The notes under the pieces were generated by a model. It made no database searches and had not been told where the DNA came from. It saw only the letters and a list, made by a program, of their open reading frames with translations. Source: Escherichia coli (GTDB lineage: Bacteria > Pseudomonadota > Gammaproteobacteria > Enterobacterales > Enterobacteriaceae). From it: 64,000 nucleotides of DNA. The translations under genes were made by a program, and so were the position numbers. Positions 18,907 through 35,578 of this stretch are shown piece by piece. The DNA lies in NCBI RefSeq assembly GCF_041248615.1, contig NZ_CP158426.1. One strand, given 5' to 3'. Within the stretch, counting starts at the first letter, position 1. The number at the start of each line of letters is the position of its first letter.

Positions 18907-20129
18907 TGGCACTGTTTTACTATCAGGCGCTGGAGCGTAATGGTCGCAAAACCAAAGGCATGATTGAGGCAGATTCCGCGCGTCATGCCCGCCAGTTGTT
19001 ACGCGGTAAAGAGCTTATTCCCGTGCACATTGAAGCCAGGATGAATGCTTCGGCAGGGGGAATGTTGCAGCGTCGGCGGCACGCACATCGTCGCGTGGCG
19101 GAGGCAGATCTGGCGCTGTTCACGCGCCAACTGGCAACGCTGGTGCAGGCAGCAATGCCGTTGGAAACCTGCTTACAGGCGGTCAGTGAGCAAAGTGAAA
19201 AACTGCATGTGAAAAGCCTCGGAATGGCGCTGCGCAGCCGGATTCAGGAAGGTTACACCCTGTCGGACAGCCTGCGCGAACATCCCCGCGTCTTTGACTC
19301 CCTGTTTTGTTCGATGGTCGCTGCCGGAGAAAAATCCGGACATCTCGACGTGGTGCTCAATCGCCTGGCGGATTACACCGAACAGCGGCAGCGTCTGAAA
19401 TCACGCCTGCTGCAGGCCATGCTCTACCCGCTGGTACTGCTGGTGGTGGCAACGGGCGTGGTCACTATTTTGCTGACGGCAGTAGTGCCGAAAATTATCG
19501 AACAGTTTGATCATCTCGGACACGCGCTGCCCGCCTCCACCCGAATGCTCATCGCCATGAGCGACGCGTTACAGGCCAGCGGCGTGTACTGGCTGGCGGG
19601 TTTGCTGGGGCTTCTGGTGCTGGGGCAACGGCTACTCAAAAATCCTGCGATGCGCCTGCGCTGGGATAAAACCTTGCTGCGTTTGCCCGTGACGGGGCGT
19701 GTTGCGCGCGGACTGAATACGGCGCGTTTTTCCCGCACATTAAGCATCCTCACCGCCAGCAGTGTTCCGCTACTGGAAGGCATTCAGACCGCCGCCGCCG
19801 TGTCGGCAAATCGTTATGTCGAGCAACAACTGCTGCTGGCGGCAGATCGCGTCCGCGAAGGAAGCAGCTTGCGCGCCGCGCTGGCGGAGTTGCGCCTGTT
19901 CCCGCCGATGATGCTGTACATGATCGCCTCCGGCGAACAGAGCGGTGAACTGGAAACCATGCTTGAACAGGCCGCAGTCAACCAGGAACGGGAATTTGAT
20001 ACCCGGGTGGGGCTGGCGTTAGGGCTGTTTGAGCCTGCTCTGGTGGTGATGATGGCGGGCGTGGTGCTGTTTATCGTCATCGCCATCCTCGAGCCGATGC
20101 TACAACTGAACAATATGGTTGGAATGTAA
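18906..20129 (+). CDS. gspF: Type II secretion inner-membrane platform protein GspF
   Basis: 407 aa with the duplicated GspF-type domain architecture, translationally coupled to gspE. Confidence 0.93.
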   Translation: MALFYYQALERNGRKTKGMIEADSARHARQLLRGKELIPVHIEARMNASAGGMLQRRRHAHRRVAEADLALFTRQLATLVQAAMPLETCLQAVSEQSEKLHVKSLGMALRSRIQEGYTLSDSLREHPRVFDSLFCSMVAAGEKSGHLDVVLNRLADYTEQRQRLKSRLLQAMLYPLVLLVVATGVVTILLTAVVPKIIEQFDHLGHALPASTRMLIAMSDALQASGVYWLAGLLGLLVLGQRLLKNPAMRLRWDKTLLRLPVTGRVARGLNTARFSRTLSILTASSVPLLEGIQTAAAVSANRYVEQQLLLAADRVREGSSLRAALAELRLFPPMMLYMIASGEQSGELETMLEQAAVNQEREFDTRVGLALGLFEPALVVMMAGVVLFIVIAILEPMLQLNNMVGM

Positions 20130-20145
20130 TTTACGGAGTTATCAC

Positions 20146-20601
20146 ATGAATTCGTTATCCCGCACACAAAAACCACGGGCAGGTTTTACCCTGCTGGAAG
20201 TGATGGTGGTGATTGTTATTCTTGGCGTCCTGGCAAGTCTGGTGGTGCCTAACCTGTTGGGCAATAAAGAGAAAGCGGATCGGCAAAAAGCCATCAGCGA
20301 TATCGTGGCGCTGGAGAATGCGCTGGATATGTACCGACTGGATAACGGGCGTTATCCGACTACCGAGCAGGGGCTTGAGGCGCTGATCCAGCAACCGGCC
20401 AATATGGCGGACGCCCGCAACTACCGTACCGGTGGATACATCAAACGACTGCCAAAGGATCCGTGGGGCAATGATTATCAGTATCTCAGCCCGGGTGAAA
20501 AAGGGCTGTTTGATGTTTACACCCTGGGGGCAGATGGTCAGGAAAACGGGGAGGGCGCTGGCGCAGATATCGGTAACTGGAATTTGCAGGAGTTTCAGTA
20601 A
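20146..20601 (+). CDS. gspG: Major pseudopilin GspG
   Basis: Translation reads MNSLSRTQKPRAGFTLLEVMVVIVILG, a prepilin leader plus the G/FTLLE cleavage motif. The ORF-track start at 20119 was rejected in favour of the ATG at 20146. Confidence 0.93.
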   Translation: MNSLSRTQKPRAGFTLLEVMVVIVILGVLASLVVPNLLGNKEKADRQKAISDIVALENALDMYRLDNGRYPTTEQGLEALIQQPANMADARNYRTGGYIKRLPKDPWGNDYQYLSPGEKGLFDVYTLGADGQENGEGAGADIGNWNLQEFQ

Positions 20602-20604
20602 TCA

Positions 20605-21168
20605 GTGCCTGAACGCGGATTCACACTTCTGGAAATCATGCTGGTGATTTTCCTTATCGGCCTTGCCAGTGCGGGCGTGGTACAGACGTTTGCGACCGCT
20701 TCAGAGCCGCCTGCGAAAAAAGCGGCGCAGGATTTTCTGACTCGCTTTGCGCAGTTTAAGGACAGGGTAGTGATCGAAGGGCAAACACTCGGTGTACTAA
20801 TCGATCCTCCTGGCTATCAGTTTATGCAGCGTCGTCAGGGGCAGTGGTTGCCCGTTTCTGCGACCCGGTTATCGGCACAGGTTACGGTGCCGAAACAGGT
20901 GCAGATGCTGTTACAACCCGGCAGTGATATCTGGCAGAAGGAATATGCGCTGGAGCTGCAGCGTCGTCGCCTGACGCTGCACGATATTGAACTGGAGCTG
21001 CAAAAAGAGGCGAAAAAGAAGACGCCGCAGATCCGTTTTTCGCCTTTTGAACCCGCCACGCCGTTTACGCTGCGCTTCTACTCGGCGGCGCAAAACGCAT
21101 GTTGGGCGGTAAAACTGGCACACGATGGCGCGTTATCCCTCAATCAATGTGATGAGAGGATGCGATGA
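20605..21168 (+). CDS. gspH: Minor pseudopilin GspH
   Basis: It has the prepilin N-terminus ERGFTLLEIMLVI and a GTG start. Confidence 0.88.
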   Translation: MPERGFTLLEIMLVIFLIGLASAGVVQTFATASEPPAKKAAQDFLTRFAQFKDRVVIEGQTLGVLIDPPGYQFMQRRQGQWLPVSATRLSAQVTVPKQVQMLLQPGSDIWQKEYALELQRRRLTLHDIELELQKEAKKKTPQIRFSPFEPATPFTLRFYSAAQNACWAVKLAHDGALSLNQCDERMR

Positions 21169-21536
21169 AGCGCGGATTTACCTTGCTGGAAGTGATGCTC
21201 GCGCTGGCGATTTTTGCGCTGGCTGCCACGGCGGTGTTACAGATTGCCAGCAGCGCGCTGAGTAATCAGCACGTTCTTGAGGAAAAAACGGTAGCGGGGT
21301 GGGTGGCTGAAAACCAGACCGCGCTGCTCTACCTGATGACCCGCGAGCAGCGGGCGGTCAGCCATCAGGGCGAGAGCGATATGGCAGGAAGCCGCTGGTA
21401 CTGGCGAACCACACCGCTGAGTACAGGCAACGCGCTGCTCCAGGCAGTGGATATTGAAGTCAGCCGTCACGAAGACTTTTCGTCGGTGATTCAGTCACGA
21501 CGCGCCTGGTTTAGCGCCGTGGGAGGCCAACAGTGA
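21165..21536 (+). CDS. gspI: Minor pseudopilin GspI
   Basis: The N-terminus reads MKRGFTLLEVMLALAIF, 123 aa. Confidence 0.9.
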   Translation: MKRGFTLLEVMLALAIFALAATAVLQIASSALSNQHVLEEKTVAGWVAENQTALLYLMTREQRAVSHQGESDMAGSRWYWRTTPLSTGNALLQAVDIEVSRHEDFSSVIQSRRAWFSAVGGQQ

Positions 21537-22138
21537 GAAGGACTTGCGCTGGTTTCACGTTACTGGAAATGCTGGTGGCAATTGCCATTTTTGCCTCGCT
21601 GGCACTGATGGCGCAGCAGGTGACTAACGGCGTCACACGCGTGAATAGCGCCGTCGCCGGACACGATCAAAAACTAAACCTCATGCAGCAAACAATGAGT
21701 TTTCTGACCCACGATCTGACACAAATGATGCCGCGTCCGGTAAGAGGCGATCAGGGCCAGCGTGAACCAGCGTTACTGGCGGGCGCTGGCGTTCTGGCGT
21801 CTGAGAGTGGAGGAATGCGTTTTGTGCGCGGCGGTGTGGTTAACCCGTTGATGCGTCTGCCACGCAGCAATCTGCTCACCGTCGGTTACCGCATTCATGA
21901 CGGTTATCTCGAACGGTTAGCCTGGCCGCTGACCGATGCCGCAGGCAGCGTGAAGCCGACAATGCAAAAGTTGATTCCGGCGGATTCGCTCCGCTTGCAG
22001 TTCTACGACGGCACGCGCTGGCAGGAGAGCTGGTCGTCAGTACAGGCGATCCCTGTGGCAGTGCGCATAACCCTGCATTCGCCGCAATGGGGCGAAATTG
22101 AACGCATCTGGTTGTTACGCGGGCCGCAATTATCATGA
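21533..22138 (+). CDS. gspJ: Minor pseudopilin GspJ
   Basis: It has the N-terminus AGFTLLEMLVAIAIF, 201 aa, and a GTG start overlapping gspI. Confidence 0.88.
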   Translation: MRRTCAGFTLLEMLVAIAIFASLALMAQQVTNGVTRVNSAVAGHDQKLNLMQQTMSFLTHDLTQMMPRPVRGDQGQREPALLAGAGVLASESGGMRFVRGGVVNPLMRLPRSNLLTVGYRIHDGYLERLAWPLTDAAGSVKPTMQKLIPADSLRLQFYDGTRWQESWSSVQAIPVAVRITLHSPQWGEIERIWLLRGPQLS

Positions 22139-23112
22139 TCACCTTACCACCAAAACGCGGAATGGCACTGGTCGTGGTGCTGGTATTGCTGGCGGTTATG
22201 ATGCTGGTGACCATCACGCTTTCCGGGCGGATGCAGCAACAACTTGGGCGAACGCGCAGCCAGCAGGAATACCAGCAGGCGCTGTGGTACAGCGCCAGTG
22301 CAGAAAGCCTGGCGTTGAGCGCACTCAGTCTGAGCCTGAAAAATGAAAAGCGCGTGCATCTGGCGCAGCCGTGGGCTTCCGGCCCTCGTTTTTTCCCACT
22401 GCCGCAGGGGCAAATCGCCGTCACTCTGCGTGACGCACAGGCCTGCTTTAACCTGAATGCCCTCGCTCAGCCGACGACGGCGTCGCGTCCGCTCGCGGTA
22501 CAACAACTGATTGCCCTGATCTCGCGCCTTGATGTACCTGCTTATCGGGCCGAACTGATAGCCGAAAGCCTGTGGGAGTTTATTGACGAAGACCGCAGCG
22601 TGCAGACGCGTCTGGGTCGTGAAGACAGCGAGTATCTCGCCCGCTCGGTGCCGTTCTACGCCGCTAATCAACCGCTGGCGGATATCAGCGAGATGCGCGT
22701 GGTGCAGGGAATGGACGCCGGGCTTTATCAAAAACTGAAACCGTTGGTCTGTGCGCTGCCGATGGCCCGCCAGCAAATCAACATCAATACCCTGGACGTC
22801 GCGCAAAGTGTGATTCTTGAGGCGCTGTTTGACCCGTGGTTAAGCCCTGTACAGGCGCGGGCGTTATTACAACAACGTCCGGCGAAGGGCTGGGAAGATG
22901 TCGATCAGTTTCTTGCTCAGCCGCTACTTGCAGACGTCGATGAGCGTACTAAAAAACAGCTAAAAACCGTCCTGAGCGTGGACAGCAATTACTTCTGGCT
23001 GCGTTCAGATATCACCGTGAATGAGATTGAACTGACGATGAATTCGTTAATTGTCCGCATGGGCCCACAACACTTTTCTGTTCTCTGGCATCAGACAGGA
23101 GAAAGTGAGTGA
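22135..23112 (+). CDS. gspK: Minor pseudopilin GspK
   Basis: 325 aa with an N-terminal hydrophobic helix (GMALVVVLVLLAVMML), in the canonical position. Confidence 0.88.
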   Translation: MITLPPKRGMALVVVLVLLAVMMLVTITLSGRMQQQLGRTRSQQEYQQALWYSASAESLALSALSLSLKNEKRVHLAQPWASGPRFFPLPQGQIAVTLRDAQACFNLNALAQPTTASRPLAVQQLIALISRLDVPAYRAELIAESLWEFIDEDRSVQTRLGREDSEYLARSVPFYAANQPLADISEMRVVQGMDAGLYQKLKPLVCALPMARQQININTLDVAQSVILEALFDPWLSPVQARALLQQRPAKGWEDVDQFLAQPLLADVDERTKKQLKTVLSVDSNYFWLRSDITVNEIELTMNSLIVRMGPQHFSVLWHQTGESE

Positions 23113-24287
23113 GTTCCATGCTTGAGATTTTTTTCCCGCTTTGCGCCGCTGATCCCATCCGCTGGCAGCGCCGTACACCCGACGTGGAGTGCGGCATCTG
23201 GCCTGACGTTGCTGATGAATGTCTCCAGCAATGGCTGCAAACTGATGCGATTCGACTCTATATTCCCGGCGAATGGATCAGCGTCTGGCAGGTTGAACTG
23301 CCTGATGTGCCCCGTAAGCAGATACCGACGATTCTGCCCGCCTTGCTGGAAGAAGAGCTGAACCAGGATATCGATGAACTGCATTTCGCCCCGTTGAAAA
23401 TCGACCAGCAACTGGCAACCGTAGCTGTGATTCACCAGCAGCATATGCGCAACATTGCGCAATGGTTGCAGGCAAACGGCATCACCCGCGCTACCGTCGC
23501 GCCAGACTGGATGTCCATTCCTTGTGGGTTTATGGCTGGCGATGCGCAACGGGTTATCTGCCGCATCGATGAATGCCGGGGATGGAGCGCCGGGCGGGCG
23601 CTGGCTCCGGTCATGTTCCGTGCACAGCTCAATGAGCAGAATTTACCGCTTTCGCTAACCGTGGTCGGCATTGCACCGGAAGAACTATCTGCATGGGCTG
23701 GTGCGGACGCCGAACGCCTGACCGTTACGGCTCTGCCAGCCATTACCACTTATGGCGAACCGGAAGGGAACCTGCTAACAGGGCCGTGGCAGCCTCGTGT
23801 CAGCTACCGAAAACAGTGGGCGCGCTGGCGGGTGATGATTCTGCCGATATTGCTGATTCTGGTTGCGCTGGTAGTGGAACGGGGCGTGACGTTATGGAGC
23901 GTCAGCGAACAGGTGGCGCAAAGCCGCACCCAGGCGGAAAAAAAGTTCTTAACACTGTTCCCGGAGCAGAAGCGGATTGTGAATTTGCGTTCCCAGGTGA
24001 CGATGGCGCTGAAAAAATATCGCCCGCAGGCCGACGATACCCGGCTGCTCGCAGAATTGTCAGCGATCGCCAGTACCCTGAAATCAGCGTCACTTACCGA
24101 CATCGAAATGCGTGGTTTCACCTTTGATCAAAAACGCCAGACGCTTCACCTTCAGCTACGGGCTGCAAACTTTGCCAGCTTCGACAAACTGCGTAGCGCA
24201 CTGGCGGCAGATTATGTTGTGCAACAGGACGCGTTACAGAAAGAGGGTGATGCGGTTTCCGGCGGCGTAACGTTGCGGAGGAAATAA
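23109..24287 (+). CDS. gspL: Type II secretion protein GspL (start GTG at 23109 or ATG at 23118)
   Basis: 392-aa bitopic protein with a central transmembrane segment (WRVMILPILLILVALVV), in the canonical position. Confidence 0.88.
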   Translation: MSSMLEIFFPLCAADPIRWQRRTPDVECGIWPDVADECLQQWLQTDAIRLYIPGEWISVWQVELPDVPRKQIPTILPALLEEELNQDIDELHFAPLKIDQQLATVAVIHQQHMRNIAQWLQANGITRATVAPDWMSIPCGFMAGDAQRVICRIDECRGWSAGRALAPVMFRAQLNEQNLPLSLTVVGIAPEELSAWAGADAERLTVTALPAITTYGEPEGNLLTGPWQPRVSYRKQWARWRVMILPILLILVALVVERGVTLWSVSEQVAQSRTQAEKKFLTLFPEQKRIVNLRSQVTMALKKYRPQADDTRLLAELSAIASTLKSASLTDIEMRGFTFDQKRQTLHLQLRAANFASFDKLRSALAADYVVQQDALQKEGDAVSGGVTLRRK

Positions 24288-24288
24288 C

Positions 24289-24825
24289 ATGTTACGCGAT
24301 AAATTTATTCACTATTTTCAGCAATGGCGTGAACGCCAGTTAAGCCGTGGCGAACACTGGCTGACACAACACCTGGCGGGGCGTTCTCCGCGTGAAAAAG
24401 GCATGTTACTGGCAGCGGCGGTGTTCCTGTTTAGCGCCGGATATTACGTCCTCATCTGGCAGCCGTTGAGCGAACGGATAGAACAACAGGAGACGATGTT
24501 GCAGCAGCTGGTGGCAATGAACACCCGACTGAAGAGCGCCGCGCCGGATATTATTGCAGCGCGAAAATCTGCCACAACAACGCCTGCGCAGGTATCGCGG
24601 GTCATCAGTGACAGTGCTTCCGCGCACTCGGTGGTCATCAAGCGGATAGCCGAGCGTGGGGAGAATATTCAGGTCTGGATAGAACCTGTGGTGTTTAATG
24701 ACCTTCTGATATGGTTAAACGCACTGGATGAAAAATATGCGCTGCGGGTGACACAAATTGATGTCAGTGCTGCTGAGAAGCCTGGGATGGTGAATGTGCA
24801 GCGGCTGGAGTTGATAAGAGGATAA
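24289..24825 (+). CDS. gspM: Type II secretion protein GspM (YghD-like)
   Basis: 178-aa ORF with a single N-terminal transmembrane segment. It is the last gene of the cluster. Confidence 0.88.
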   Translation: MLRDKFIHYFQQWRERQLSRGEHWLTQHLAGRSPREKGMLLAAAVFLFSAGYYVLIWQPLSERIEQQETMLQQLVAMNTRLKSAAPDIIAARKSATTTPAQVSRVISDSASAHSVVIKRIAERGENIQVWIEPVVFNDLLIWLNALDEKYALRVTQIDVSAAEKPGMVNVQRLELIRG

Positions 24826-24897: not shown

Positions 24898-25175
24898 GAG
24901 TTAAATATTTTTGCAATAAGAAATATCCCACTTCCGCCATCACTGAATGTTCTGCAAAACGACAGATACGAGTTCTCTCCTGAAACAGCCCTGCGTCCTA
25001 TAAATATGCTTACGTGTGGCAATACATCATGATTATTAATAGATGCAATGAATCATTAGGTAGCAATTGATAGGTCAAAACATATAGGATAATTCTTGTG
25101 TGATCTGTATGTTGTGTAGCCTGGAAATTAGTAAAATTCCTGGAGATAATCAGAGAGGGAATTTCAAATAGTATA

Positions 25176-25840
25176 ATAATTTCCCAAGAAACTATTCGTC
25201 GATTTTAGGAAAAGTCTGCTCAGGTATATCTACCGAGGGATAATGCTGGCTGTAACGCTGGTTAAAATAGATACACAAAATAATCAAGATGTATATTTTA
25301 ATCGACGAAAATAATTACTTCCGGGATTATTGATGCGACTTAAATAACACCATTTAAATGTGATATAAATCACAAATATGGCTGTGAAGAGGGTGCTGTA
25401 GATATAAATAAGAAGTACATGAGTGAATTTTAAATAGGGGAATAGTTTCTCGCTAAACAATTTGTTGGTGATCAATCACATGCGTTCTGGTTTGAGGCAG
25501 ATTGCAGGTGTTGTTACGCATAAAATTCATAGGTGGTATTATAATCAAGTAGTTAACAGTAATAGTAAAAAATAATTTCTTGCGAAATTAGCAGCCCATT
25601 TTGAATAAGTGTGTTCCGGAGTAATCCAGAGCGCATGCTGCTTTACGTCTTTTTCAAGCCATGTTGGTTAAGCAAAAAGAGGTAGAAATAATTTCCTGAG
25701 AAATTAACTCAACATTCTGAAATGGCCAGTTTTCTGAAATTACCAGAAGACCGAATACATTCATGCCTGAAGAATGGATTAGAAGAAACGAGACGGAAAT
25801 AGATCTATTTATCCCTGCGGAAATAATTTCTGATGAAATT
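25176..25840 (+). repeat. Four dispersed copies of the motif ATAATTTC-N4-GAAAYT (palindromic core AATTTC-N4-GAAATT) upstream of kpsM
   Basis: The cores lie at 25178-25193 (one mismatch), 25574-25589, 25690-25705 and 25825-25840. Each is preceded by ATA or AATA. A TTCTGAAAT direct repeat lies at 25716 and 25732. Confidence 0.6.
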
Positions 25841-25908
25841 GTTTTCGGCTATTAAAAAGGTCAAACCGGCTGAGTGAATTTTATCCAGTTACAAACAAGT
25901 ATTACCTC

Positions 25909-25947
25909 CAGTGTATTGGTAGCTGTTAAGCCAGGGGCGGTAGCATA
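25909..25947 (+). promoter_or_regulatory. JUMPStart element with ops site (RfaH recruitment) upstream of kpsM
   Basis: The sequence cagtgtattggtagctgttaagccaggggcggtagcata contains GGCGGTAG at 25936-25943, about 30 nt upstream of the kpsM ATG. Confidence 0.85.
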
Positions 25948-25975
25948 CCTGAAGAGAATAGGATCACATCACCAA

Positions 25976-26752
25976 ATGGCAAGAAGTGGATTTGAAGTCC
26001 AGAAAGTCACCGTAGAGGCATTATTTCTACGAGAAATACGAACACGCTTTGGTAAGTTCCGTCTGGGATATCTGTGGGCGATTCTCGAACCCTCTGCGCA
26101 TTTGCTGATACTGTTGGGCATTTTTGGTTACATTATGCACCGCACGATGCCAGACATCTCATTCCCGGTGTTTTTACTTAATGGCCTGATTCCCTTTTTT
26201 ATCTTTAGCAGTATCAGCAATCGTTCTGTAGGTGCTATTGAAGCGAATCAGGGGCTGTTTAATTATCGACCAGTAAAACCCATCGATACGATCATTGCGC
26301 GTGCATTGCTTGAGACACTGATTTACGTTGCTGTTTATATATTGCTTATGCTTATCGTCTGGATGGCAGGCGAATATTTCGAAATAACAAACTTTTTACA
26401 ACTTGTGCTCACCTGGAGTCTGCTGATCATTCTTTCATGTGGCGTCGGCTTAATATTCATGGTCGTTGGCAAAACCTTCCCTGAAATGCAAAAGGTCCTG
26501 CCGATACTGCTTAAGCCGCTGTATTTCATCTCCTGCATCATGTTCCCTTTACACTCGATTCCAAAGCAATACTGGTCATATCTACTCTGGAACCCATTAG
26601 TGCATGTCGTAGAGTTAAGCCGCGAGGCAGTTATGCCTGGCTATATCAGCGAAGGCGTGAGTCTGAACTACCTTGCAATGTTCACTCTGGTCACCCTGTT
26701 CATCGGTCTGGCGTTATACCGAACGCGTGAAGAGGCAATGCTGACATCATGA
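25976..26752 (+). CDS. kpsM: Capsule export ABC transporter permease KpsM (region 3)
   Basis: Translation reads MARSGFEVQKVTVEALFLREIRTRFGK..., 258 aa. The longer ORF-track start at 25874 covers the ops element and was rejected. Confidence 0.95.
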   Translation: MARSGFEVQKVTVEALFLREIRTRFGKFRLGYLWAILEPSAHLLILLGIFGYIMHRTMPDISFPVFLLNGLIPFFIFSSISNRSVGAIEANQGLFNYRPVKPIDTIIARALLETLIYVAVYILLMLIVWMAGEYFEITNFLQLVLTWSLLIILSCGVGLIFMVVGKTFPEMQKVLPILLKPLYFISCIMFPLHSIPKQYWSYLLWNPLVHVVELSREAVMPGYISEGVSLNYLAMFTLVTLFIGLALYRTREEAMLTS

Positions 26753-27426
26753 TTAAAATTGAAAATTTGACGAAGTCATATCGCACGCCAGCGGGTCGAC
26801 ATTATGTCTTTAAGAATTTAAATATTGAAATCCCTTCAGGAAAAAGTGTTGCCTTTATTGGTCGCAACGGAGCGGGTAAATCAACGTTACTGAGAATGAT
26901 TGGCGGCATTGACCGCCCCGACAGTGGAAAGATCATCACTAATAAAACAATATCATGGCCAGTCGGCCTCGCAGGTGGATTTCAGGGAAGTTTAACCGGA
27001 CGCGAAAACGTAAAATTTGTTGCCCGGTTATACGCGAAGCAAGAAGAACTAAAAGAGAAAATTGAGTTTGTCGAAGAATTTGCCGAACTCGGTAAGTACT
27101 TCGATATGCCGATTAAAACTTACTCATCTGGTATGCGATCGCGTTTAGGCTTTGGTTTAAGCATGGCATTTAAGTTTGATTATTATATCGTCGATGAAGT
27201 AACCGCAGTCGGTGATGCCAGGTTTAAAGAAAAATGCGCTCAATTGTTTAAAGAAAGGCATAAAGAGTCTAGTTTTTTAATGGTTTCACATAGTTTGAAT
27301 TCATTGAAAGAGTTTTGTGATGTGGCCATTGTGTTTAAGGATGATAATGCGGTTGGTTTTTATGAGGATGTTCATGAGGGGATAAAATCATACCAAATAA
27401 ATGAAAATACAACTATTAAGATTTAG
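26749..27426 (+). CDS. kpsT: Capsule export ABC transporter ATPase KpsT (region 3)
   Basis: 225 aa with Walker A GRNGAGKST, the signature YSSGMRSRL and Walker B YYIVDE. Confidence 0.95.
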   Translation: MIKIENLTKSYRTPAGRHYVFKNLNIEIPSGKSVAFIGRNGAGKSTLLRMIGGIDRPDSGKIITNKTISWPVGLAGGFQGSLTGRENVKFVARLYAKQEELKEKIEFVEEFAELGKYFDMPIKTYSSGMRSRLGFGLSMAFKFDYYIVDEVTAVGDARFKEKCAQLFKERHKESSFLMVSHSLNSLKEFCDVAIVFKDDNAVGFYEDVHEGIKSYQINENTTIKI

Positions 27427-27612
27427 GCCATTACGTGAAGATATAATTTACACTCCCCAAGTTAATACATATAAGTAATTATATTAATAAATATTTATAA
27501 AAGGCATCTAAAGAATAGATGCTTAGAGCCACTTAAACTGCTGTATTGTCTAAATGTAAGAAATAACGAAATGGGTTTTTGGTGATTACTGTACTCAAAA
27601 GGAGTCAAGAAT

Positions 27613-30600
27613 ATGAAATCAATATTGTATTATTTAGAGCCACGTACAGAATTAAATGACAAATTATTTCGCTATGCAACACTACGCTCTTATCTACTAC
27701 CTGAAATTGATGGCCTTAGGATAGCTGATAAGAGCCTCGATTTTAAAATGATCGTTTCTCGTACGATTTATAATAAAGCAAAACAAAATAATTTAAAAAT
27801 GGAGGGTATCGATTTTATAATTATTGATGAAGATGTATTTGAAAAGAACTCATATCTGAAGAATATTAATGTTAGTAATGAATTATATCATGGGAATTTA
27901 AATATAAAGGCTAATGAAGAACTAAAATCAATCATATCTGCTTGCCTTCCTGTTGATTATAAACCAGATATTATTATTTCATATGAAAGCCCAGCTCCAT
28001 TTTTTAAAGAGATATTTCCATCATCTTTACTTTTAAACGCTATGTTTGGAATTTTTTCAAGGGCACCATTTCCTGCATATGGGTTATTAGACCCATGTGG
28101 TTTGTATGAATATTCATATCAATATAAATATGCTGATAAAATTCGTGCTGAGGAGATTTCAGAAGAAGAAAAGGAAGTTATAAAATTACTCAGAAGACAA
28201 AGTTCAAGAGCACTTGCTGCTTATCATCCTCTCAAGAAATATATTTCATCATTATATGAAAAATATGATCGACTTGTTGTATTAGCATGTCAAGTGGATA
28301 ACTATTTTTCTTATAATAGTTGTACCAATTATCCATCACAATATGCGATGGTGGAAGATGTTCTTTCTCAAGTTCCATCAAATATTGGTGTTATAGTTAC
28401 AGAACATGGCTATAAAAGACAAATAAGTGACGAGCAAATTGAGTCTTTAAATGAAAAATACAGTAATTTTATATATTTTTCTAAAAAAGATGTATTCACA
28501 CCAAGTCAATTTATTCTTCCTTATGTAGATGGTGCTTTATCAGTCTCGTCATCGATTGGTTATCAGGCTGCTTTATGGCAGATTCCATATTTTGGTCTTG
28601 GAAAATCACAAGTCGATGTACTCTGTTCAAATACATCATTAATGAGCTTCGTTAATGATGTTGAAAAAGGCATAAAGATTGATCGTGATAATATTCTTTA
28701 TGTTTTACTTTCAAAAGTTCACTTATCACATAAAAATGATTTGTTTAATGGAAAATCTTATCTAAATAAGTTGAAGGATTTATTTAATAAGTTTACCTCT
28801 AATTGCGACGAATATGAGTATTTTAACACTAAAAAAAGTATTGATGAAGTTCGAAAAGATATCATCTGTGGCAACAGAGAATGGTTACTGAAAAAAAACT
28901 TTATTGACTCAAAATTAGTTCCTGAAGTAGACCATTTACGTGTTGCAATGTCGCATTCAAAAGCGATCTCTTATGATCTTTTTGATACTCTTGTTGAACG
29001 TGATTTTGTTGAACCTCATGAATTATTTAATCTAATTGAATCCCGTGTACGTAATGAGTTAAACAATAAAAACTTCCCTTTCTATTATGTAAGACGACAA
29101 GCCGAAATTGACTTGCGCAGAGAGACAAGAGGTGAGTTTGAAATTACTCTCGATGAAATTTACGAAAGATTTCCAAGATACTTTGATCTTACTTTAGAAC
29201 AACTAGAGAAGATAAAAAATATAGAAATAGATGCTGAAGTCGAACTCGTTCATCCGAAAAAAGAAATGGTTCGTGAATTTTATTTTTCTCAAATGATTTG
29301 TGAAAGTGTATCTATCATTACAGATATTTATCTTTCTCAGAATGTTATTGAGCGTATTTTACAAAAAGTAAAAATTAGTGGTTACAATAAATTATTGGTT
29401 TCAGCAGAAACTAAAACAAGAAAACATAACGGAACTATTTATCCTGAATATTTGAAATATATAAGAGATAATTTTGATATTAATGCAGGACAGGCTCTTC
29501 ATGTCGGTGATAATAAACAAGCTGATGGTGATATGGCTAAAAAACATGGCATAAAAACATATGTATTTCAAAAAGCGATTGATAATTACAAAAAATCTTT
29601 AATTGCTGATATTTTACGTTCCAGTATTAATCATCCAGGTATTTCGAGTTCTGTTATTAATGGTTTGTTTGCTAACAAATATCACGCAGGACACTGGTTT
29701 AAAATTAACAAGGAATCAATTTTTAATGCTGACGAATATAATTATGGCTATATGGCAATAGGGCCTCTTGTTGTTGGCTTTACTCAGTGGTTGTATCGGC
29801 GGGTTAATAAATTAGGTATCAAAAAATTATATTTCTTATCCCGCGATGGATGGATTCTTAAAAAAACATTCGATTATTTTTATCCTGAATCATCATCTGG
29901 CATCAAGACCGAATACCTGTACAGCTCTCGTCGAACTGCAATGGTAGCATCGTTAAGAAATATTGATGATATTATTGAAGTTGCCTCTCAAAACTTCAAT
30001 GCTAGAAAGCTAAGTGACTTTTTATCTACTCGTTTTGGGCTGGATGTGGATACTGTTAAAAAATCTGTTCTTGAAAAATATAATTACAAGCATGACACTA
30101 TTGTTTCTCCTTATTTTGAATTTGGAAAGCTGATTGGTTTTTTAAAAGATATTCATCATACAATATTGTCTAATGCAAAAAATGAACGTGAAAGCTATAT
30201 CGATTATTTACGAGAAACTGGATTTGAAAATGATTGCTTAAATGGCGGTGCTACTGTTGTTGATATTGGTTACAGTGGTTCCATGCAATATTATTTAAAA
30301 AAAATACTGCAATGCCCTTGTGTGAACGGATTTTATTTTTTAACACATCACCATAGTCGTGATTATTTTTCAAATGATCATTTTGAAGGTTTCTTGCAAA
30401 ATCTTGATGATCATAAGATCGCTTATAGACATGGATTAAATGATCATGTGTTTATTTTTGAAGCAGCATTAAGTTCCCCTGAAGGAAGTCTGATTAAAAT
30501 GGAAGGGAAAGGTCAAGAAAGAGAAATGATTTTTCTCGAGGCAGAAGAAGAGATTGTAAGAAAAAATGCTCTATTAGGAACACATCGTGGCGTAATGGAC

Positions 30601-31122
30601 TTTGTTCATGATATCAAAACTCGTTTTGGTTCTTACTTTAAATACATTGAATTTTCTCCTATTCTTTCTTCTCAACTTATTTTGAATTTTGCGAATAATC
30701 CCAACGGTATAGATGCAGGGATGTTTGCTTCTCATGAAGTCGAAAATGTTTTTGGTGGGGGGTCTGTATGCTTAATTTCGCCTTTACTAGATTGCTATAA
30801 GGACTCTAATGGCACCATTAACCCTAAAATTATCGATGAGTTATTAAAAGCATCTAAATGGAAGAGAGGTGCCAGTGCTTATTATAACTTAGTCAATGGA
30901 ACTCAACCGCGAGTTAATCCTGCTAAAATGCCAGCGCCATCTGTTAACCCAGTTGTTGTGAAGCAAACGCCACAAACTACTTATGCACATCCTTTAAAGA
31001 CAACTACGCAGCGTAAACTTGCTAAGTTAAAAAAAGACCCATATTTATTCTTTAATGATTCCCAAAAACCTCTTTTAAAAAGTTTACGATTGTTCTTCAA
31101 AAATACATCAAAGCTTAATTAA
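27613..31122 (+). CDS. Region 2 giant multidomain protein, putative capsule polymerase (KpsS/KpsC-like Capsule_synth-type domain, HAD-like domain, unassigned C-terminal domain, basic tail)
   Basis: 1169-aa ORF in very AT-rich DNA. Residues around 215-330 align by motif with the KpsS and KpsC of this same window (VLACQVDNYFSY vs VLQVYNDSQI / QVEDDASI; VIVTEHGYK vs VIKHHPMD; ALSVSSSIGYQAALWQIPYFGLG vs VVTINSTAGISALIHNKPLKVMG). HAD motif I (SYDLFDTLVERD) and motif IV (HVGDNKQADGDMAKKHGIKT) are present. Confidence 0.6.
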   Translation: MKSILYYLEPRTELNDKLFRYATLRSYLLPEIDGLRIADKSLDFKMIVSRTIYNKAKQNNLKMEGIDFIIIDEDVFEKNSYLKNINVSNELYHGNLNIKANEELKSIISACLPVDYKPDIIISYESPAPFFKEIFPSSLLLNAMFGIFSRAPFPAYGLLDPCGLYEYSYQYKYADKIRAEEISEEEKEVIKLLRRQSSRALAAYHPLKKYISSLYEKYDRLVVLACQVDNYFSYNSCTNYPSQYAMVEDVLSQVPSNIGVIVTEHGYKRQISDEQIESLNEKYSNFIYFSKKDVFTPSQFILPYVDGALSVSSSIGYQAALWQIPYFGLGKSQVDVLCSNTSLMSFVNDVEKGIKIDRDNILYVLLSKVHLSHKNDLFNGKSYLNKLKDLFNKFTSNCDEYEYFNTKKSIDEVRKDIICGNREWLLKKNFIDSKLVPEVDHLRVAMSHSKAISYDLFDTLVERDFVEPHELFNLIESRVRNELNNKNFPFYYVRRQAEIDLRRETRGEFEITLDEIYERFPRYFDLTLEQLEKIKNIEIDAEVELVHPKKEMVREFYFSQMICESVSIITDIYLSQNVIERILQKVKISGYNKLLVSAETKTRKHNGTIYPEYLKYIRDNFDINAGQALHVGDNKQADGDMAKKHGIKTYVFQKAIDNYKKSLIADILRSSINHPGISSSVINGLFANKYHAGHWFKINKESIFNADEYNYGYMAIGPLVVGFTQWLYRRVNKLGIKKLYFLSRDGWILKKTFDYFYPESSSGIKTEYLYSSRRTAMVASLRNIDDIIEVASQNFNARKLSDFLSTRFGLDVDTVKKSVLEKYNYKHDTIVSPYFEFGKLIGFLKDIHHTILSNAKNERESYIDYLRETGFENDCLNGGATVVDIGYSGSMQYYLKKILQCPCVNGFYFLTHHHSRDYFSNDHFEGFLQNLDDHKIAYRHGLNDHVFIFEAALSSPEGSLIKMEGKGQEREMIFLEAEEEIVRKNALLGTHRGVMDFVHDIKTRFGSYFKYIEFSPILSSQLILNFANNPNGIDAGMFASHEVENVFGGGSVCLISPLLDCYKDSNGTINPKIIDELLKASKWKRGASAYYNLVNGTQPRVNPAKMPAPSVNPVVVKQTPQTTYAHPLKTTTQRKLAKLKKDPYLFFNDSQKPLLKSLRLFFKNTSKLN

Positions 31123-31130
31123 TATAATGT

Positions 31131-31158
31131 GAGTCGCACTATGGTGTGACTCTTTTTT
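31131..31158 (+). terminator. Rho-independent terminator between the two region 2 genes
   Basis: A 9-bp stem GAGTCGCAC / GTGTGACTC (one G-U pair) with loop TATG is followed by TTTTTT. Confidence 0.7.
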
Positions 31159-31240
31159 ATATGTCAGTGATAGTTATTAATGAAATATTTAATGCGCGAA
31201 GGTGTACGATTTTTACAATATTTAGAGACTGGTGGGTCAA

Positions 31241-32230
31241 ATGAGTATTTCTTTGAAAAATATTGATTTTGCTAAAGGTCCTGTTGATTCCCTCCATCAT
31301 GATTATTACTTATGGCGAGGGAAGAACATTGAGGATAAAAGACTTTTTCTCGTTTTCTCATCTCGGGGAGCAGGTCCTGGAGAATTTAGTTTTTTCAAAA
31401 CTTTTGATGCGCTTAATGTAAATGTTTTGCATGTTACACCCTCTGATTTTTCATGGTACCAAAAAGGGTTAGTCGGTTTAGGGAGTGATTTGCCTTCTGC
31501 ATTTAAAGCCCTATCTGACCGAATAGATAATTTCTGTATTTATCATAAAATAAAACAAATTATCTGTGTAGGGGCTTCCATGGGAGGATATGGTGCTTTA
31601 ATTTATGGGGCTTTATCTAGTAGAAAAATAAAAACAACACTTATTCTTTTTGGCACCGAAACAATATTAAAACTTCCTTATTCTAAAAGTTCTGAGAGTG
31701 AATTTGATATTCTCAAAAAATTTAAAGATGTAAGGTTTCTAGATTATTCTGATCTTGATGTGAATATGATATTTGGTGAGTTTGATATTGTAGATACTTA
31801 TTGTGCTTTATCGATGCGACATGATCGAAATTTTTCATTTTTTTCATGCACTAGCGCCTCACATGTTGTTCCGGAATACTTAAATAGACAAATTGGAATT
31901 GTTAATTTTTTTACAGACTTCTTATCGGGTGGAAGATCTTTTATTGGAAGAGGCCACATTGCTTCTGAGCTTTATCCTGAGGATATTTCTCCTCTTCTGT
32001 TCTCGAAACAATTTACTGAGGAATACAATAATGCCCTCCTCTGTTGCTTGAAAAAATATCCTTCATTTGGGTTTGCATGGAATAGATTAGGCGTATATTT
32101 ACACAATATAGGAGATCTGGCTGGGTCTTTAGCAGCATTAAAAAGAGCATTTTTCATCAACCCTGATTATCCAAATACAATTGAGCATCTTAACTCGGTA
32201 AGAAATAAACTAAAAACTAAAAACTTTTAG
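31241..32230 (+). CDS. Region 2 alpha/beta-hydrolase-fold protein with C-terminal TPR-like repeats (possible capsule O-acyl/acetyl modifying enzyme)
   Basis: It has the nucleophile elbow VGASMGGYGAL, with later Asp (GEFDIVD) and His (SASHVVPE) in canonical Ser-Asp-His order. The C-terminus AWNRLGVYLHNIGDLAGSLAALKRAFFINPDYPN is TPR-like. The ATG at 31241 is preferred over the GTG at 31232 because a GGTGGG Shine-Dalgarno sequence lies just upstream. Confidence 0.55.
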   Translation: MSISLKNIDFAKGPVDSLHHDYYLWRGKNIEDKRLFLVFSSRGAGPGEFSFFKTFDALNVNVLHVTPSDFSWYQKGLVGLGSDLPSAFKALSDRIDNFCIYHKIKQIICVGASMGGYGALIYGALSSRKIKTTLILFGTETILKLPYSKSSESEFDILKKFKDVRFLDYSDLDVNMIFGEFDIVDTYCALSMRHDRNFSFFSCTSASHVVPEYLNRQIGIVNFFTDFLSGGRSFIGRGHIASELYPEDISPLLFSKQFTEEYNNALLCCLKKYPSFGFAWNRLGVYLHNIGDLAGSLAALKRAFFINPDYPNTIEHLNSVRNKLKTKNF

Positions 32231-32307
32231 TTTTTATGTATACTTGTGTGAGGAATGAATAGCAATATATCTCAATATCTAAGAGCTGGTTTTTATATCG
32301 TTCATAG

Positions 32308-33516
32308 TTATAATTTTTTTACTTTTATTTGTTTTCTTACTCTATCCCCATAATAAACCCCATTAACCTGCGTCTTCACCAATAAATACCCCCGAAACTT
32401 CTTAAACAGTTTCATATCCGGTTTAAAATCGGCCTGCCAGAACTGGTGCAAATGCCCTTGATACGTCAAGCCTTTGATGTCGTACAGGGCATTGCCCATC
32501 ACTTTGAGTGGTTTGTTGTGAATCAGCGCAGATATCCCCGCCGTACTGTTAATTGTCACCACCGCTTTTGCGTGGCGTAACAATTCCGGCATCGGGAGAT
32601 CGTGCACATAAATGACTCGTTCCCCTAAGCCATATTCCTTACTCAACCGCTTAATTAATGGTCGATAGAGTCTGTGACCACGATCCATTGGATGGTGCTT
32701 GATCACCAAATAACTTTCTTTCGGTGCTTTACGTGAAAATGAGTACATGACTTCATTAATATAGTCACGCACATCGTTATAATTGCTGTGGTTACGAATC
32801 TGGCTATCGTTATACACCTGCAAAACGGCAAGATAATAACGCTGATCCAGCTCATTCATTAACCTCGGCAATACCTTACGCTGTGTTACCTTGTAAAGTT
32901 GCTTGCGCCAGTATGCACGAACCCAGCAACGTGCTTCATACCAGGGGGAAAACGATTTATGGTGGCGGTAGCGAGGGAACTCATGGCGGTAATGCCAGCC
33001 CATCAGGTAATACCACATCGCATGACCTATACGTTTCATCGTTGAAGGTTTTAAGTTCTCAACGTGCGGCGCAGGCATATCTGGTAACTTACGATAAAAA
33101 TCCGGATCGCGCGGTAGCGATGAATATGCGTTTACTCCGCCTTCTTCAACGGTTATAAATTGCGGGCGTAAATATCCTTCTTCAAATGCCAGAAAGCGGA
33201 GCCCTTTCGACTTTGCCCAGCGTTTTGCTTCTTTATGCAATGGGCGACAGTCACCAAAACAGAGGATGGTATCAAAGTCATATTGCCGGTGGAGATCCCG
33301 TAACCATCCGGGGAACTCTTTCGGCGTTTGGTAGTAGGCCAGGTATTGTCGATGGCGGCAGTAAAAACGATCCCCACCGTTGAATACAACATTCACAGCG
33401 TTACGTCCTAATGACTCTAACCATTCGGCGACGTCATTGAAAAAAGGTCCCATCGGCCCCTGCAATAGCAGATATTTTTTACCGGATAATAAAACGGTTA
33501 GTGCATTACCTTGCAT
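32308..33516 (-). CDS. kpsS: Capsule beta-Kdo transferase KpsS (region 1)
   Basis: Translation reads MQGNALTVLLSGKKYLLLQGPMGPFFNDVAEWLE..., 402 aa, recognised as KpsS. Confidence 0.93.
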   Translation of the reverse strand: MQGNALTVLLSGKKYLLLQGPMGPFFNDVAEWLESLGRNAVNVVFNGGDRFYCRHRQYLAYYQTPKEFPGWLRDLHRQYDFDTILCFGDCRPLHKEAKRWAKSKGLRFLAFEEGYLRPQFITVEEGGVNAYSSLPRDPDFYRKLPDMPAPHVENLKPSTMKRIGHAMWYYLMGWHYRHEFPRYRHHKSFSPWYEARCWVRAYWRKQLYKVTQRKVLPRLMNELDQRYYLAVLQVYNDSQIRNHSNYNDVRDYINEVMYSFSRKAPKESYLVIKHHPMDRGHRLYRPLIKRLSKEYGLGERVIYVHDLPMPELLRHAKAVVTINSTAGISALIHNKPLKVMGNALYDIKGLTYQGHLHQFWQADFKPDMKLFKKFRGYLLVKTQVNGVYYGDRVRKQIKVKKL

Positions 33517-33550
33517 AAATAATTTGCGTAATAGTCAACTATGAAATTGT

Positions 33551-35578
33551 TTAGCCAAATCTGACCTTGCAGAACATAATTAATTTGCGGTAATAGCGTA
33601 TTACCCGTCCCGCTTTTTTTCGGGTAATAAACATCGGCTTACGCGGCGTCTGGATTAAATATTCCGCAGCTTCCTCAACCGTAATAGGCTGTAGCCGTGT
33701 TGGGTGAATATATGTTGGGTAAACAATCAACGCCTGATAGATCAAGTCTGCTATCGTTAATTTTTGCTCGCGGCGCGGGCAATGATGTTCATCAACGGTT
33801 AAACCCCAACCGGCATAGAAGGGCAGGCCGTAACAATGAACTTGCTTGCCATGTAATAACGCTTCAAACCCGGACAATGATGTCATGGTGTGCACTTCAT
33901 CTGCGCGCTGAATGCATTGAATAATATCGGCGCCCAGTGCCTGATAATCAGCGAGTTCAGCAGTCAGTTCTGCCGGAATATCGCCCTTGCGATTCCCCAC
34001 CAGTACATCCGGGTGCGGTTTATAAACAATGTAGGCGTGCGGATTGCGCTCGCGTACTGTGCGTAATAACTCAAGGTTGCTCTTAATCGAGACAGTGCCT
34101 GTTTTAATGGAGGCATCGTCCTCTACCTGACCCGGCACCAGGATAACTTTTTTATCTTTGGCTTCGGCTGGTAGAGAGAAATCGGCTCCCAGGTTGTACT
34201 TACTCAGTTTGCTTTCAACCAGTCGCTGGCGTAATTTTTCAGCTCGCATCTGCTGCGCCAGCGTTAACTGGCTGTGATTAAGCAGGACTTCCAGGTCGCT
34301 GGGGCGCGTGGCGTCATAGTAGATCCCGCGTTTATCCAGTACCAACGATAGCGGCGGCAGCAGGTCAGAGCCAAGTCCGGATGAACGCAGAAAACCATCT
34401 TCCATTCGCCATAACGGCAGTGATTTTTGTTGCGCTTCGGCTCGCCATTGCTGTTCTCCCTTTACACCCCATACCACGCAGGCGCTCGCCGCAGTACAGC
34501 GACGTGAAAAACTCAGCCGGTTTGTTGCCGTTTGCAAGAAAGGTTTCAGGATCGCTGACTTCCACAGCGTTAAGCCTGGCGCCCATAAATAACCATCACG
34601 CTGTTGCAGATGTCGACGTTGTAATTGCAGCCATTGCAGCACGGTAAATAGATCGCTTACTTCTCCCGTTTGCGGATCGATATAGCGACAGTAACGCAGG
34701 TATGCAGCGGCAAAAAGTTCCTCCAGCGTGGCAGAACCGCGTCGGGCAGATAACAAAGCGGACTGTGGATGACGATCGTCGGTTAAACCCCAACCTGCAT
34801 ACCAAGGCTGGCCGAAACATGTTACTGGTTTTCCTGCCAGCAAGGCTTCAAAGCCGTACTGGGAGGTCACGACGTAAACCTGGGAAACGTGTCGCAATAG
34901 CGACTGCGGGCTGACATTCTCGGCAATCAAACGTACTCGTTGCGTGGCACGCAGATCAGCGAAATAACCTGTTTTCTTTCCTTCCAGTACATCTGGGTGC
35001 ACCTTCACCCAAATTTCGGCTTGAGGATTTTCCGCCATCGCGGCTTCCAGCATGGCAGCAAACTCATGCGGGCCAGCATTGCCATACGTCACTGACATAT
35101 CATTAAATGTCTGATCGACAACCAGAACGATGTCTGCACGTTCTGACTCATCAGCCACAAACGCAGGTGCCAGGTTATATTTCGACAAATCTCCGGTCAC
35201 GATGGTGTGCATCGCTTCTCTGGCCTGGCTTATCAGAGCTGTATTTCCGGCTTTATCCTGTACCAGTTTCTCCAGTGCTGAAGGCTTGCTGGCATCGTAG
35301 TAAATGCCACAATCATCCACCACCAGAGAAAGCGGCGGCTCGCCATTGACGCCAAGATCCAGCGAACGCACAAATCCATCTTCCAGACGAATGACGGGTT
35401 TTCCCGCTGCTTTGGCGATGGCGACTGGTTTCGCCGCGCTGGGACGATGTCCCCACACGGCGATAGCATCAACTTCTTGCGGAACAGGGCGCAGCAGAGA
35501 AAGTTTCTGGCACGGTTGCGCCAGAAATTTCTCCAGATGCGGAATACGCCAGATGCCAGGCGAGTAAATGCCAATCAT
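33551..35578 (-). CDS. kpsC: Capsule beta-Kdo transferase KpsC (tandem Capsule_synth domains)
   Basis: 675 aa starting [19 protein letters not shown]..., with duplicated HPDV motifs. Confidence 0.95.

Follow-up and report, generated by a model that had tools for sequence, protein, structure and literature searches.

A terminator-type hairpin and a putative O-acyltransferase gene downstream of the polymerase gene in the Escherichia coli K107 capsule locus

We analyzed a 64,000-nt stretch of Escherichia coli contig NZ_CP158426.1 (the window), which carries a group 2 (kps) capsule locus of K-type K107. Region 2 of this locus consists of two plus-strand genes: gene 1 (K107_10; 27613-31122), which encodes a 1169-aa predicted polymerase, and gene 2 (K107_9; 31241-32230), which encodes a 329-aa alpha/beta-hydrolase (ABH) protein with a tetratricopeptide repeat (TPR) tail, a putative capsule O-acyl (acetyl) transferase. 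Between the two genes, on the same strand, lies a terminator-type hairpin with its T-run (31131-31158; 9-bp stem, 4-nt loop). With moderate confidence, we propose that this hairpin closes a transcriptional unit composed of kpsM, kpsT, and the polymerase gene, and that gene 2 is an accessory O-acyltransferase gene located beyond it. The locus (catalogued), the polymerase class (characterized in 2026), and ABH-fold capsule O-acetyltransferases were already known; what appears to be new, as judged from sequence comparison, is (i) the link of the ABH-TPR family to the meningococcal enzyme CsaC with a changed second shell, and (ii) a conserved terminator-type hairpin that parts the polymerase gene from the modifier gene.

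A candidate terminator follows the polymerase gene

The stem begins at the ninth nucleotide past the TAA stop (31120-31122) of the polymerase open reading frame (ORF). Its arms, GAGTCGCAC (31131-31139) and GTGTGACTC (31144-31152), enclose the loop TATG and are followed by T6 (31153-31158), and the nine stem pairs comprise five G-C, three A-U, and one G-U. This is the form of an intrinsic terminator: a stem-loop containing G+C, with a U-tract directly after it, located just 3' of a stop codon. The initial annotation had described such a hairpin between the polymerase stop and gene 2, and all of its sequence claims were confirmed. The in-frame ATG of gene 2 is at 31241 rather than 31242.

Folding of the 43-nt hairpin segment yielded -15.2 kcal/mol (z = -6.2), and none of 200 shuffles was as stable. 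A loose terminator pattern was not enriched between 25000 and 34000 (five sites relative to 5.6 expected), and the hairpin was the best of the five. We then applied a strict scan, in which the stem had to be perfect over 8 bp or more (with G-U pairs permitted), contain four or more G-C pairs, and be followed directly by T6. The whole window contained only two such sites, 31131-31158 and 51823-51796 on the minus strand; the latter has a 12-bp stem with eight G-C pairs, a 4-nt loop, and T6. Dinucleotide shuffling of region 2 did not yield a site with a 9-bp stem, five G-C pairs, and T6 in any of 300 trials. Because the z-score is -6.2 and none of the 300 shuffles equaled the site, the hairpin appears to be a credible intrinsic terminator and not a chance match.

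The hairpin is separated from gene 2 by a spacer of 82 nt (31159-31240), read directly from the sequence. The spacer contains a Shine-Dalgarno-like GGTGGG (31233-31238), immediately behind which the gene 2 ATG is located, 82 nt past the T-run; the RefSeq start is identical. It also contains TACAAT (31214-31219), without a -35 element. An Rfam scan of 25000-34000 gave no match at either the hairpin or the spacer, returning only the JUMPstart element (discussed later) and one chance snoRNA match.

Hairpins and gene order in related loci

The other E. coli K107 strains that were aligned show no difference in either hairpin or spacer (100% identity), so that these strains are uninformative and other lineages were needed. 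None of the seven lineages examined lacks a stable hairpin after the polymerase stop, and these include loci in which the polymerase gene ends its unit. In L031, whose polymerase is 75% identical to that of K107, a 10-bp stem with six G-C pairs is followed by a T-run, and a promoter-like site matching 9 of 12 consensus positions precedes the gene 2 homolog. The hairpin of L006 (12 bp, z = -5.6) is likewise followed by a U-run. The remaining stems are of 14 bp in Kluyvera (L001/L005; z = -5.5), 9 bp in L007 (z = -3.5), 12 bp in Yersinia intermedia L003, where the polymerase gene is the last gene (z = -4.6), and 15 bp, rich in G+C, in Cupriavidus L002 (z = -4.7). As the hairpin sequences are unrelated between lineages, it is the position that seems to have been maintained, rather than the sequence inherited. 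Those hairpins that lack a U-tract may be 3'-end stabilizers or processing sites rather than terminators.

Close relatives of gene 2 always adjoin a homolog of the 1169-aa polymerase gene in a kps-like locus. In E. coli, L031, Kluyvera L001/L005, and L007, gene 2 lies downstream of the polymerase gene on the same strand. In L006 it follows kpsS on the region 1 strand and is convergent with the polymerase gene, while in Cupriavidus L002 it stands alone between opposite-strand operons, convergent with the polymerase gene and divergent from kdsA, and must therefore have its own promoter. Read most simply, the comparison places the end of the kpsMT-polymerase unit at the hairpin, with the hydrolase-TPR gene as a cassette beyond it.

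No gene 2 neighbor was found beside the 48-60% identical polymerases of Aeromonas veronii and Yersinia intermedia. The Yersinia polymerase, which lacks gene 2, is 73% identical to that of L007, which has it, and the two form a natural plus/minus pair. The existence of related polymerases without gene 2 suggests that gene 2 is dispensable for polymerization, as expected of a modifying enzyme, and its distribution points to an accessory gene. In Yersinia intermedia L003 (11845-12861, minus strand) and L007 (9036-10031, minus strand), a gene of the beta-helix/NosD family (331-338 aa) is located between region 2 and kpsS. This gene is absent from E. coli K107, and could encode a lyase, a depolymerase, or another modifying enzyme.

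We considered whether the hairpin might instead be leaky or inactive, or might stabilize or process the 3' end of the mRNA, with gene 2 being simply the last cistron of one RfaH-dependent operon. We regard this as a serious but doubtful possibility. Consistent with it, no plus-strand sigma-70-like promoter matching at least 9 of 12 positions was found from the hairpin to the ATG (31159-31240), although weaker ones are possible; RfaH-modified RNA polymerase is known to resist termination; the hairpins at four of the seven homologous positions have no U-tract; and both region 2 genes share a low G+C content (approximately 30-34%). Conversely, a T-run completes the terminator form of the hairpins in E. 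coli, L031, and L006, and the gene arrangements of Cupriavidus and L006 indicate that gene 2 is transcribed there independently of the polymerase gene. Further, the real end of the unit, the 77-nt junction between gene 2 and kpsS (32231-32307), had no stable hairpin on either strand when folded (z = +1.07 and -0.36).

Gene 2 encodes a conserved ABH-TPR protein

The initial annotation had also pointed out a serine, an aspartate, and a histidine in catalytic-triad order in the gene 2 product, followed by a TPR tail, and both features were borne out. The candidate triad residues, S113 within VGASMGGYG (codon 31577-31579), D182 (31784-31786), and H208 (31862-31864), are invariant or nearly so among relatives, as is D185, and residues ~241-329 (nucleotides 31961-32227) match TPR models. 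The hydrolase core spans residues ~20-235. An AlphaFold model of the protein (pLDDT 84.1, pTM 0.83) has a minimal ABH core, in which S113 is predicted to occupy the elbow between a strand (106-112) and a helix (114-125), with acidic residues after the strand at 173-179 and H208 after that at 198-203. This is the ABH fold with a GxSxGG elbow between strand and helix. In the same model, five helices between residues 246 and 327 would constitute the TPR tail.

Besides its own cluster, clustering at 90% identity yielded only 10 that hold close relatives; these originate from Kluyvera, Rahnella, Cupriavidus, and metagenomes and are 35-99% identical to the K107 protein. In their alignment, no variation is seen at G111, S113, M114, G115, G116, E140, E180, D185, or H208, and very little at D182. 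When the alignment was extended to 40 members, down to 22% identity, W72, G111, G115, G179, and D185 remained invariant, and Y73, S113, M114, E180, and H208 were conserved in at least 90%. A profile search of 1.84 billion representatives recovered 812 clusters (50% identity) at E <= 1e-10, and the hydrolase domain carried the match in approximately 136 of the 150 best results. The ABH-TPR family is thus large but uncurated: Pfam and NCBIfam returned only sub-threshold matches to the K107 protein (Abhydrolase_1, Hydrolase_4, TPR, XcbB_CpsF, and Asp2), and a Foldseek search of the model against the PDB found only generic esterases and lipases and was not discriminating. The tail has the tandem helix-turn-helix form of TPRs. 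While the Pfam TPR match of the single sequence was below threshold, the family profile matched the TPR regions of SPINDLY and OGT (4.6e-15, residues 251-310), and 26 of the 40 relatives matched TPR_1 or TPR_2.

Among more distant relatives, P0011 and P0076 (30-35% identity) adjoin kdsB, kdsA, and kpsF, together with RgpF-like genes. P0076 is also located beside a polysialyltransferase-like gene and a gene encoding a 686-aa protein with a HAD domain, of the kind that carries a ribofuranosyltransferase-phosphatase. For the 386-aa relatives P0097 and P0109, the contigs were too short to give an informative context. In the relatives P0104, P0152, P0181, and P0145, the hydrolase domain is fused to a TupA-like ATP-grasp domain, a hexapeptide acyltransferase, an AlgX-type SGNH acetyltransferase domain, or a sulfatase, several of which modify polysaccharides.

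The extreme 3' end of gene 2 varies among strains. Tandem Repeats Finder identified an AAACTAA heptanucleotide repeat (32207-32225, plus strand) of 2.7 copies within the last codons, and the copy number varies by +1 or -1 among E. coli K107 strains, shifting the frame at the end of the gene. In the window, gene 2 encodes 329 aa, ending in KTKNF; strain AVS0193, with one additional copy, encodes 328 aa (ending in KTKN), and strain GF43, with one copy fewer, encodes 336 aa with a different 12-residue tail. This variation alters only residues past the TPR.

The gene 2 product resembles capsule O-acetyltransferases

CsaC (SacC/MynC), the capsule O-acetyltransferase of Neisseria meningitidis serogroup A (PDB 6yuo; PMC7501274), is approximately 13-15% identical to the gene 2 product. 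We compared the 40-member profile with CsaC, using a query sequence 100% identical to 6yuo_A, by hhalign, which returned a probability of 84% (E = 7.5e-6) over 174 columns at 15% identity. The alignment pairs S113 with S114 of CsaC and D182 with D198, while H208, conserved after the last core strand, falls past its end. In CsaC, a "triad extension" formed by Y79, Q138, and H201 is critical for transfer (PMC7501274). These residues pair with Y73, E140, and D185, respectively, all of which are conserved in the family; that is, the tyrosine is kept, while the glutamine of CsaC is replaced by glutamate and the histidine by aspartate.

Two esterase controls aligned with the family profile at the nucleophile elbow only: BioH, whose sequence was verified, gave 7% over 21 columns, and a UPF0227/YqiA-type protein, whose sequence was confirmed only as a UPF0227 member, gave 69% over 48 columns. 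The weak Pfam neighbors Asp2 and UPF0227 are common to CsaC and the ABH-TPR family.

The gene 2 product differs from CsaC in several respects. CsaC lacks the C-terminal TPR tail, its lid helices have no obvious equivalent in the predicted model of the K107 protein, and its acceptor is poly-ManNAc-1-phosphate, as opposed to the ribose-Kdo (3-deoxy-D-manno-oct-2-ulosonic acid) polymer predicted for K107. Similarities also extend to K15 ORF5 and meningococcal CssE/OatC (PMC7387560), which, like the gene 2 product, have an ABH fold, a GGSMGG-type elbow, and a Ser-Asp-His triad, are encoded in capsule region 2, and have been assigned to O-acetylation. K15 ORF5, however, is a UPF0227 protein without a TPR tail, the spacing of its triad (S179/D253/H281) is unlike that of the K107 protein, and its role in O-acetylation is itself a prediction (PMC7387560). 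By analogy with these enzymes, the gene 2 product is most likely a capsule O-acyl (acetyl) transferase.

An ABH fold could also serve hydrolysis: the protein might be an esterase that removes O-acyl groups attached by an enzyme whose gene lies elsewhere, or it might act on a precursor or on the lipid end in the manner of a thioesterase or lipase. We consider this unlikely. The locus contains no acyltransferase whose product could be removed; the alignment shows no N-terminus resembling a signal peptide, which argues for cytoplasmic action during synthesis; and the longest remote match was to the O-acetyltransferase CsaC, not to either of the two esterase controls. In addition, O-acetylation is the function of the ABH enzymes known from capsule loci with an ABC transporter, namely CsaC, CssE, and, by prediction, K15 ORF5 (PMC7387560).

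A third view, that the protein serves chiefly as a TPR adaptor without catalytic activity (for instance, a factor for initiation or chain length that joins the polymerase to the poly-Kdo linker or the exporter) with a vestigial hydrolase fold, would accord with the finding that linker elongation by the capsule polymerase CpsD depends on its TPR domain (PMC11666461) and with the TPR protein K16_7 beside a related polymerase in K16 region 2, yet it is highly improbable given that the Ser/Asp/His residues and the GxSMGG motif are invariant or nearly so in 40 relatives down to 22% identity, which argues for catalysis, and that closely related polymerases work in loci without gene 2. K16_7 itself (345 aa in kTYPr, the K-type catalogue discussed below) is 24.8% identical to K107_9. 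We rejected it as a full homolog, as its TPR spans residues 145-343 and no hydrolase domain is annotated; the shared identity is probably confined to the TPR. Its gene adjoins that for a related ribose-Kdo polymerase. Small TPR proteins may be a recurring partner of this polymerase class. We also rejected the idea that gene 2 encodes a capsule "transition transferase", as those enzymes are glycerol-3-phosphate transferases (CpsA and CpsC).

Several observations weigh against the proposal that the hairpin ends the unit and that an O-acyltransferase gene follows. At the hairpin, the T-run is only six bases long and the stem includes a G-U pair, so that termination may be partial or weak, and the absence of a U-tract from four of the seven hairpins, mentioned above, belongs here as well. 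The hhalign match to CsaC is a single pairwise comparison at 15% identity that ends before the histidine. Moreover, neither phmmer nor the profile search of the PDB had CsaC among the matches listed (for the profile search, the best 60 of 96); the analogy with CsaC drawn in the initial annotation thus stands as remote homology, but not as membership in the same sequence family. The changes of Gln138 to Glu and His201 to Asp mean that the chemistry could differ from that of CsaC. For relatives of 20-30% identity, the association with glycan genes is no more than modest: among 92 neighbors of 17 distant relatives in reference genomes were four GT1, two GT2, and two GT29 genes, a weak enrichment. 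Finally, we found no published structure of the K107 polysaccharide, and without one there is no O-acetyl group to account for.

The locus and its predicted polymer

The order of genes is that of a group 2 locus, as judged from the ORF layout and Rfam: kpsFEDUCS, region 2 with its 1169-aa and 329-aa ORFs, kpsTM, and the JUMPstart element. We assigned K107 on the basis of ORF lengths and domains, which match the corresponding entry of the kTYPr catalogue exactly. That catalogue (Miravet-Verde et al., Nat Microbiol 2026, PMC13171606) places K107 in lineage G2A and offers domain annotation only; its supplement lists K107_10 (1169 aa, HAD 450-661) and K107_9 (329 aa, ABH 21-144, TPR 241-329). K107 is described there as a newly defined type that is positively associated with invasive E. 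coli isolates. It falls in a group of clusters (K13_K23 to K19) with an ORF longer than 1100 aa in common, predicted to encode a Kdo transferase that is GT99-like, together with a ribofuranosyltransferase-phosphatase (PMC13171606). We found region 2 (27400-32320) in 21 of 5426 complete E. coli genomes, always on the chromosome and at 99.7-100% identity, with both genes annotated as "hypothetical protein". Its G+C content is 30-34% throughout, as compared with 45-53% in region 1.

The domain composition of the K107 polymerase was examined by profile and structure comparison. A profile of 25 homologs matched Bcs3, the polymerase of Haemophilus influenzae type b, at 2.8e-57 (positions 429-866), and the ribofuranosyl transferase 7shg at 1.4e-48 (positions 445-1055). 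A model of residues 1-430 (pLDDT 92.8) was searched with Foldseek against the PDB, and the top 14 matches were all to WbbB, a GT99 beta-Kdo transferase (E = 1.5e-10; template modeling score 0.56-0.64), followed by KpsC and then KrkA of K13, a recent structure (E = 8e-7). From the model, residues 1 to ~430 are predicted to form a GT99-like retaining beta-Kdo transferase; residues ~450-660 and ~660-1055 probably correspond to a HAD phosphatase and a ribofuranosyltransferase dependent on phosphoribosyl pyrophosphate (PRPP), respectively. These are the modules of the KrkA-like polymerases of K13 to K19: a beta-Kdo-transferase fold, a HAD phosphatase, and a PRPP-type ribofuranosyltransferase. The profile and Foldseek matches justify the label "polymerase" and lead to the prediction that the K107 polymer is a ribofuranose-Kdo polymer. 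Its donors, PRPP and cytidine monophosphate (CMP)-Kdo, need no further region 2 genes, which would explain why region 2 is so small, and the biochemistry of KrkA (PMC12887879) agrees with the donor use predicted here.

Region 2 of the K13, K20, and K23 loci (PMC12887879) is a close parallel in layout: like that of K107 as interpreted here, it contains one large fused Kdo-transferase/ribofuranosyltransferase (KrkA) and one acetyltransferase, which defines the serotype. KrkA is also a structural match to the N-terminal module of the K107 polymerase, although that module is nearer to WbbB (GT99; E = 1.5e-10) than to KrkA (GT140; E = 8e-7). Two other differences are that the K13 acetyltransferase, VatD, is related to OatA (PMC12887879), whereas that of K107 would be an alpha/beta hydrolase, and that no internal terminator has been described in K13, unlike K107.

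Expression of region 2 and a proposed mechanism

A JUMPstart element was identified at 25909-25947 on the plus strand (Rfam RF01707; 53.6 bits relative to a gathering score of 35). Within it lies an exact match to ops (GGCGGTAG; 25936-25943, plus strand), and the kpsM ATG (25976) is 32 nt downstream of the JUMPstart. This element is probably the RfaH loading site for the transcript that runs from region 3 into region 2. In the K1 and K5 group 2 clusters, JUMPstart/ops is likewise located just 5' of kpsM with region 2 downstream on the same strand, and region 2 requires RfaH-dependent read-through from PR3 (PMC8960920); that model, unlike the situation in K107, describes no canonical intrinsic terminator between the polymerase gene and a modifying gene. 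A second exact match to GGCGGTAG is present at 32964-32971 on the plus strand, antisense inside kpsS. Finding two such matches in the window is no more than would be expected by chance (35 of 100 shuffles).

On the basis of these data, we propose the following sequence of events. Transcription would start from the region 3 promoter, RNA polymerase would acquire RfaH at JUMPstart/ops, and it would then read kpsM, kpsT, and the three-module polymerase gene. The hairpin and T6 at 31131-31158 would end a large fraction of transcripts, such that gene 2 would be expressed well below the polymerase gene, either by read-through of RfaH-modified RNA polymerase or from a weak promoter of its own. If the gene 2 product works as CsaC does, its S113 would take an acetyl group from acetyl-CoA, forming acetyl-Ser113. 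D182 and H208 would be the other members of the triad, and Y73, E140, and D185 a possible second shell. The acetyl group would then be passed to a hydroxyl of the ribose-Kdo chain, while the short TPR tail might hold the enzyme on the polymerase or on the nascent chain. Low expression of gene 2 would fit partial O-acetylation. Non-stoichiometric O-acetylation is typical of E. coli K antigens. In this scheme, actual termination, read-through by RfaH, the use of acetyl-CoA, the acceptor, and the role of the TPR are steps that we infer; modification of the capsule in a condition-dependent manner is speculation.

Should gene 2 indeed O-acetylate a backbone of ribose and Kdo, the antigenic form of the K107 capsule would be set by it. 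There is precedent for such an effect, as the K13, K20, and K23 serotypes are separated by acetylation alone, and the antigenic form matters for vaccine antigens, phage receptors, and typing in silico. Partial O-acetylation would find a simple explanation in the terminator, with RfaH-dependent read-through setting the ratio of backbone synthesis to modification. In addition, the CsaC-like alignment, with Glu and Asp in place of Gln and His, bears on a question raised for CsaC, namely how hydrolase-fold enzymes become transferases. The arrangement extends known themes and is not surprising in kind; we regard it as sensible and fairly ordinary.

A broader generalization can be framed, in which (i) the ABH-TPR family O-acylates nascent glycans while docked through its TPR onto polymerase or chain, using a Ser-Asp-His triad and a Tyr/Glu/Asp rather than a Tyr/Gln/His second shell, with the K107 protein as its first recognized member, and (ii) the terminator is a fixed attenuator that RfaH can override, making K107 O-acylation sub-stoichiometric and tunable. 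We put this forward tentatively, as it is rather unlikely to hold in full.

Flanking genes and minor features

Region 3 comprises the ABC transporter genes kpsM (25976-26752) and kpsT (26749-27426), both on the plus strand and identified from the ORF list. RefSeq has the label "ABC transporter ATP-binding protein" within this stretch, and the homologous loci have ABC2_membrane and ABC_tran genes at the equivalent place. On the other side of region 2, kpsS (32308-33516, minus strand; "capsule biosynthesis protein" in RefSeq) marks the end of region 1 and is convergent with gene 2. Beyond it, also on the minus strand and likewise taken from the ORF list, are kpsC, kpsU, kpsD, kpsE, and kpsF.

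Upstream of kps, overlapping plus-strand ORFs at 18906-24825 resemble a general secretion (gsp) operon by layout only. In E. coli, kps usually has the gsp operon on its left. The polymerase gene is separated from kpsT by 186 nt; on the minus strand of this gap (27504-27522) is a hairpin that resembles a terminator, with a 7-bp stem and a T-rich tail. It opposes the transcription of regions 3 and 2, and it is adjoined by an AT-rich repeat with a 10-bp period (27481-27501).

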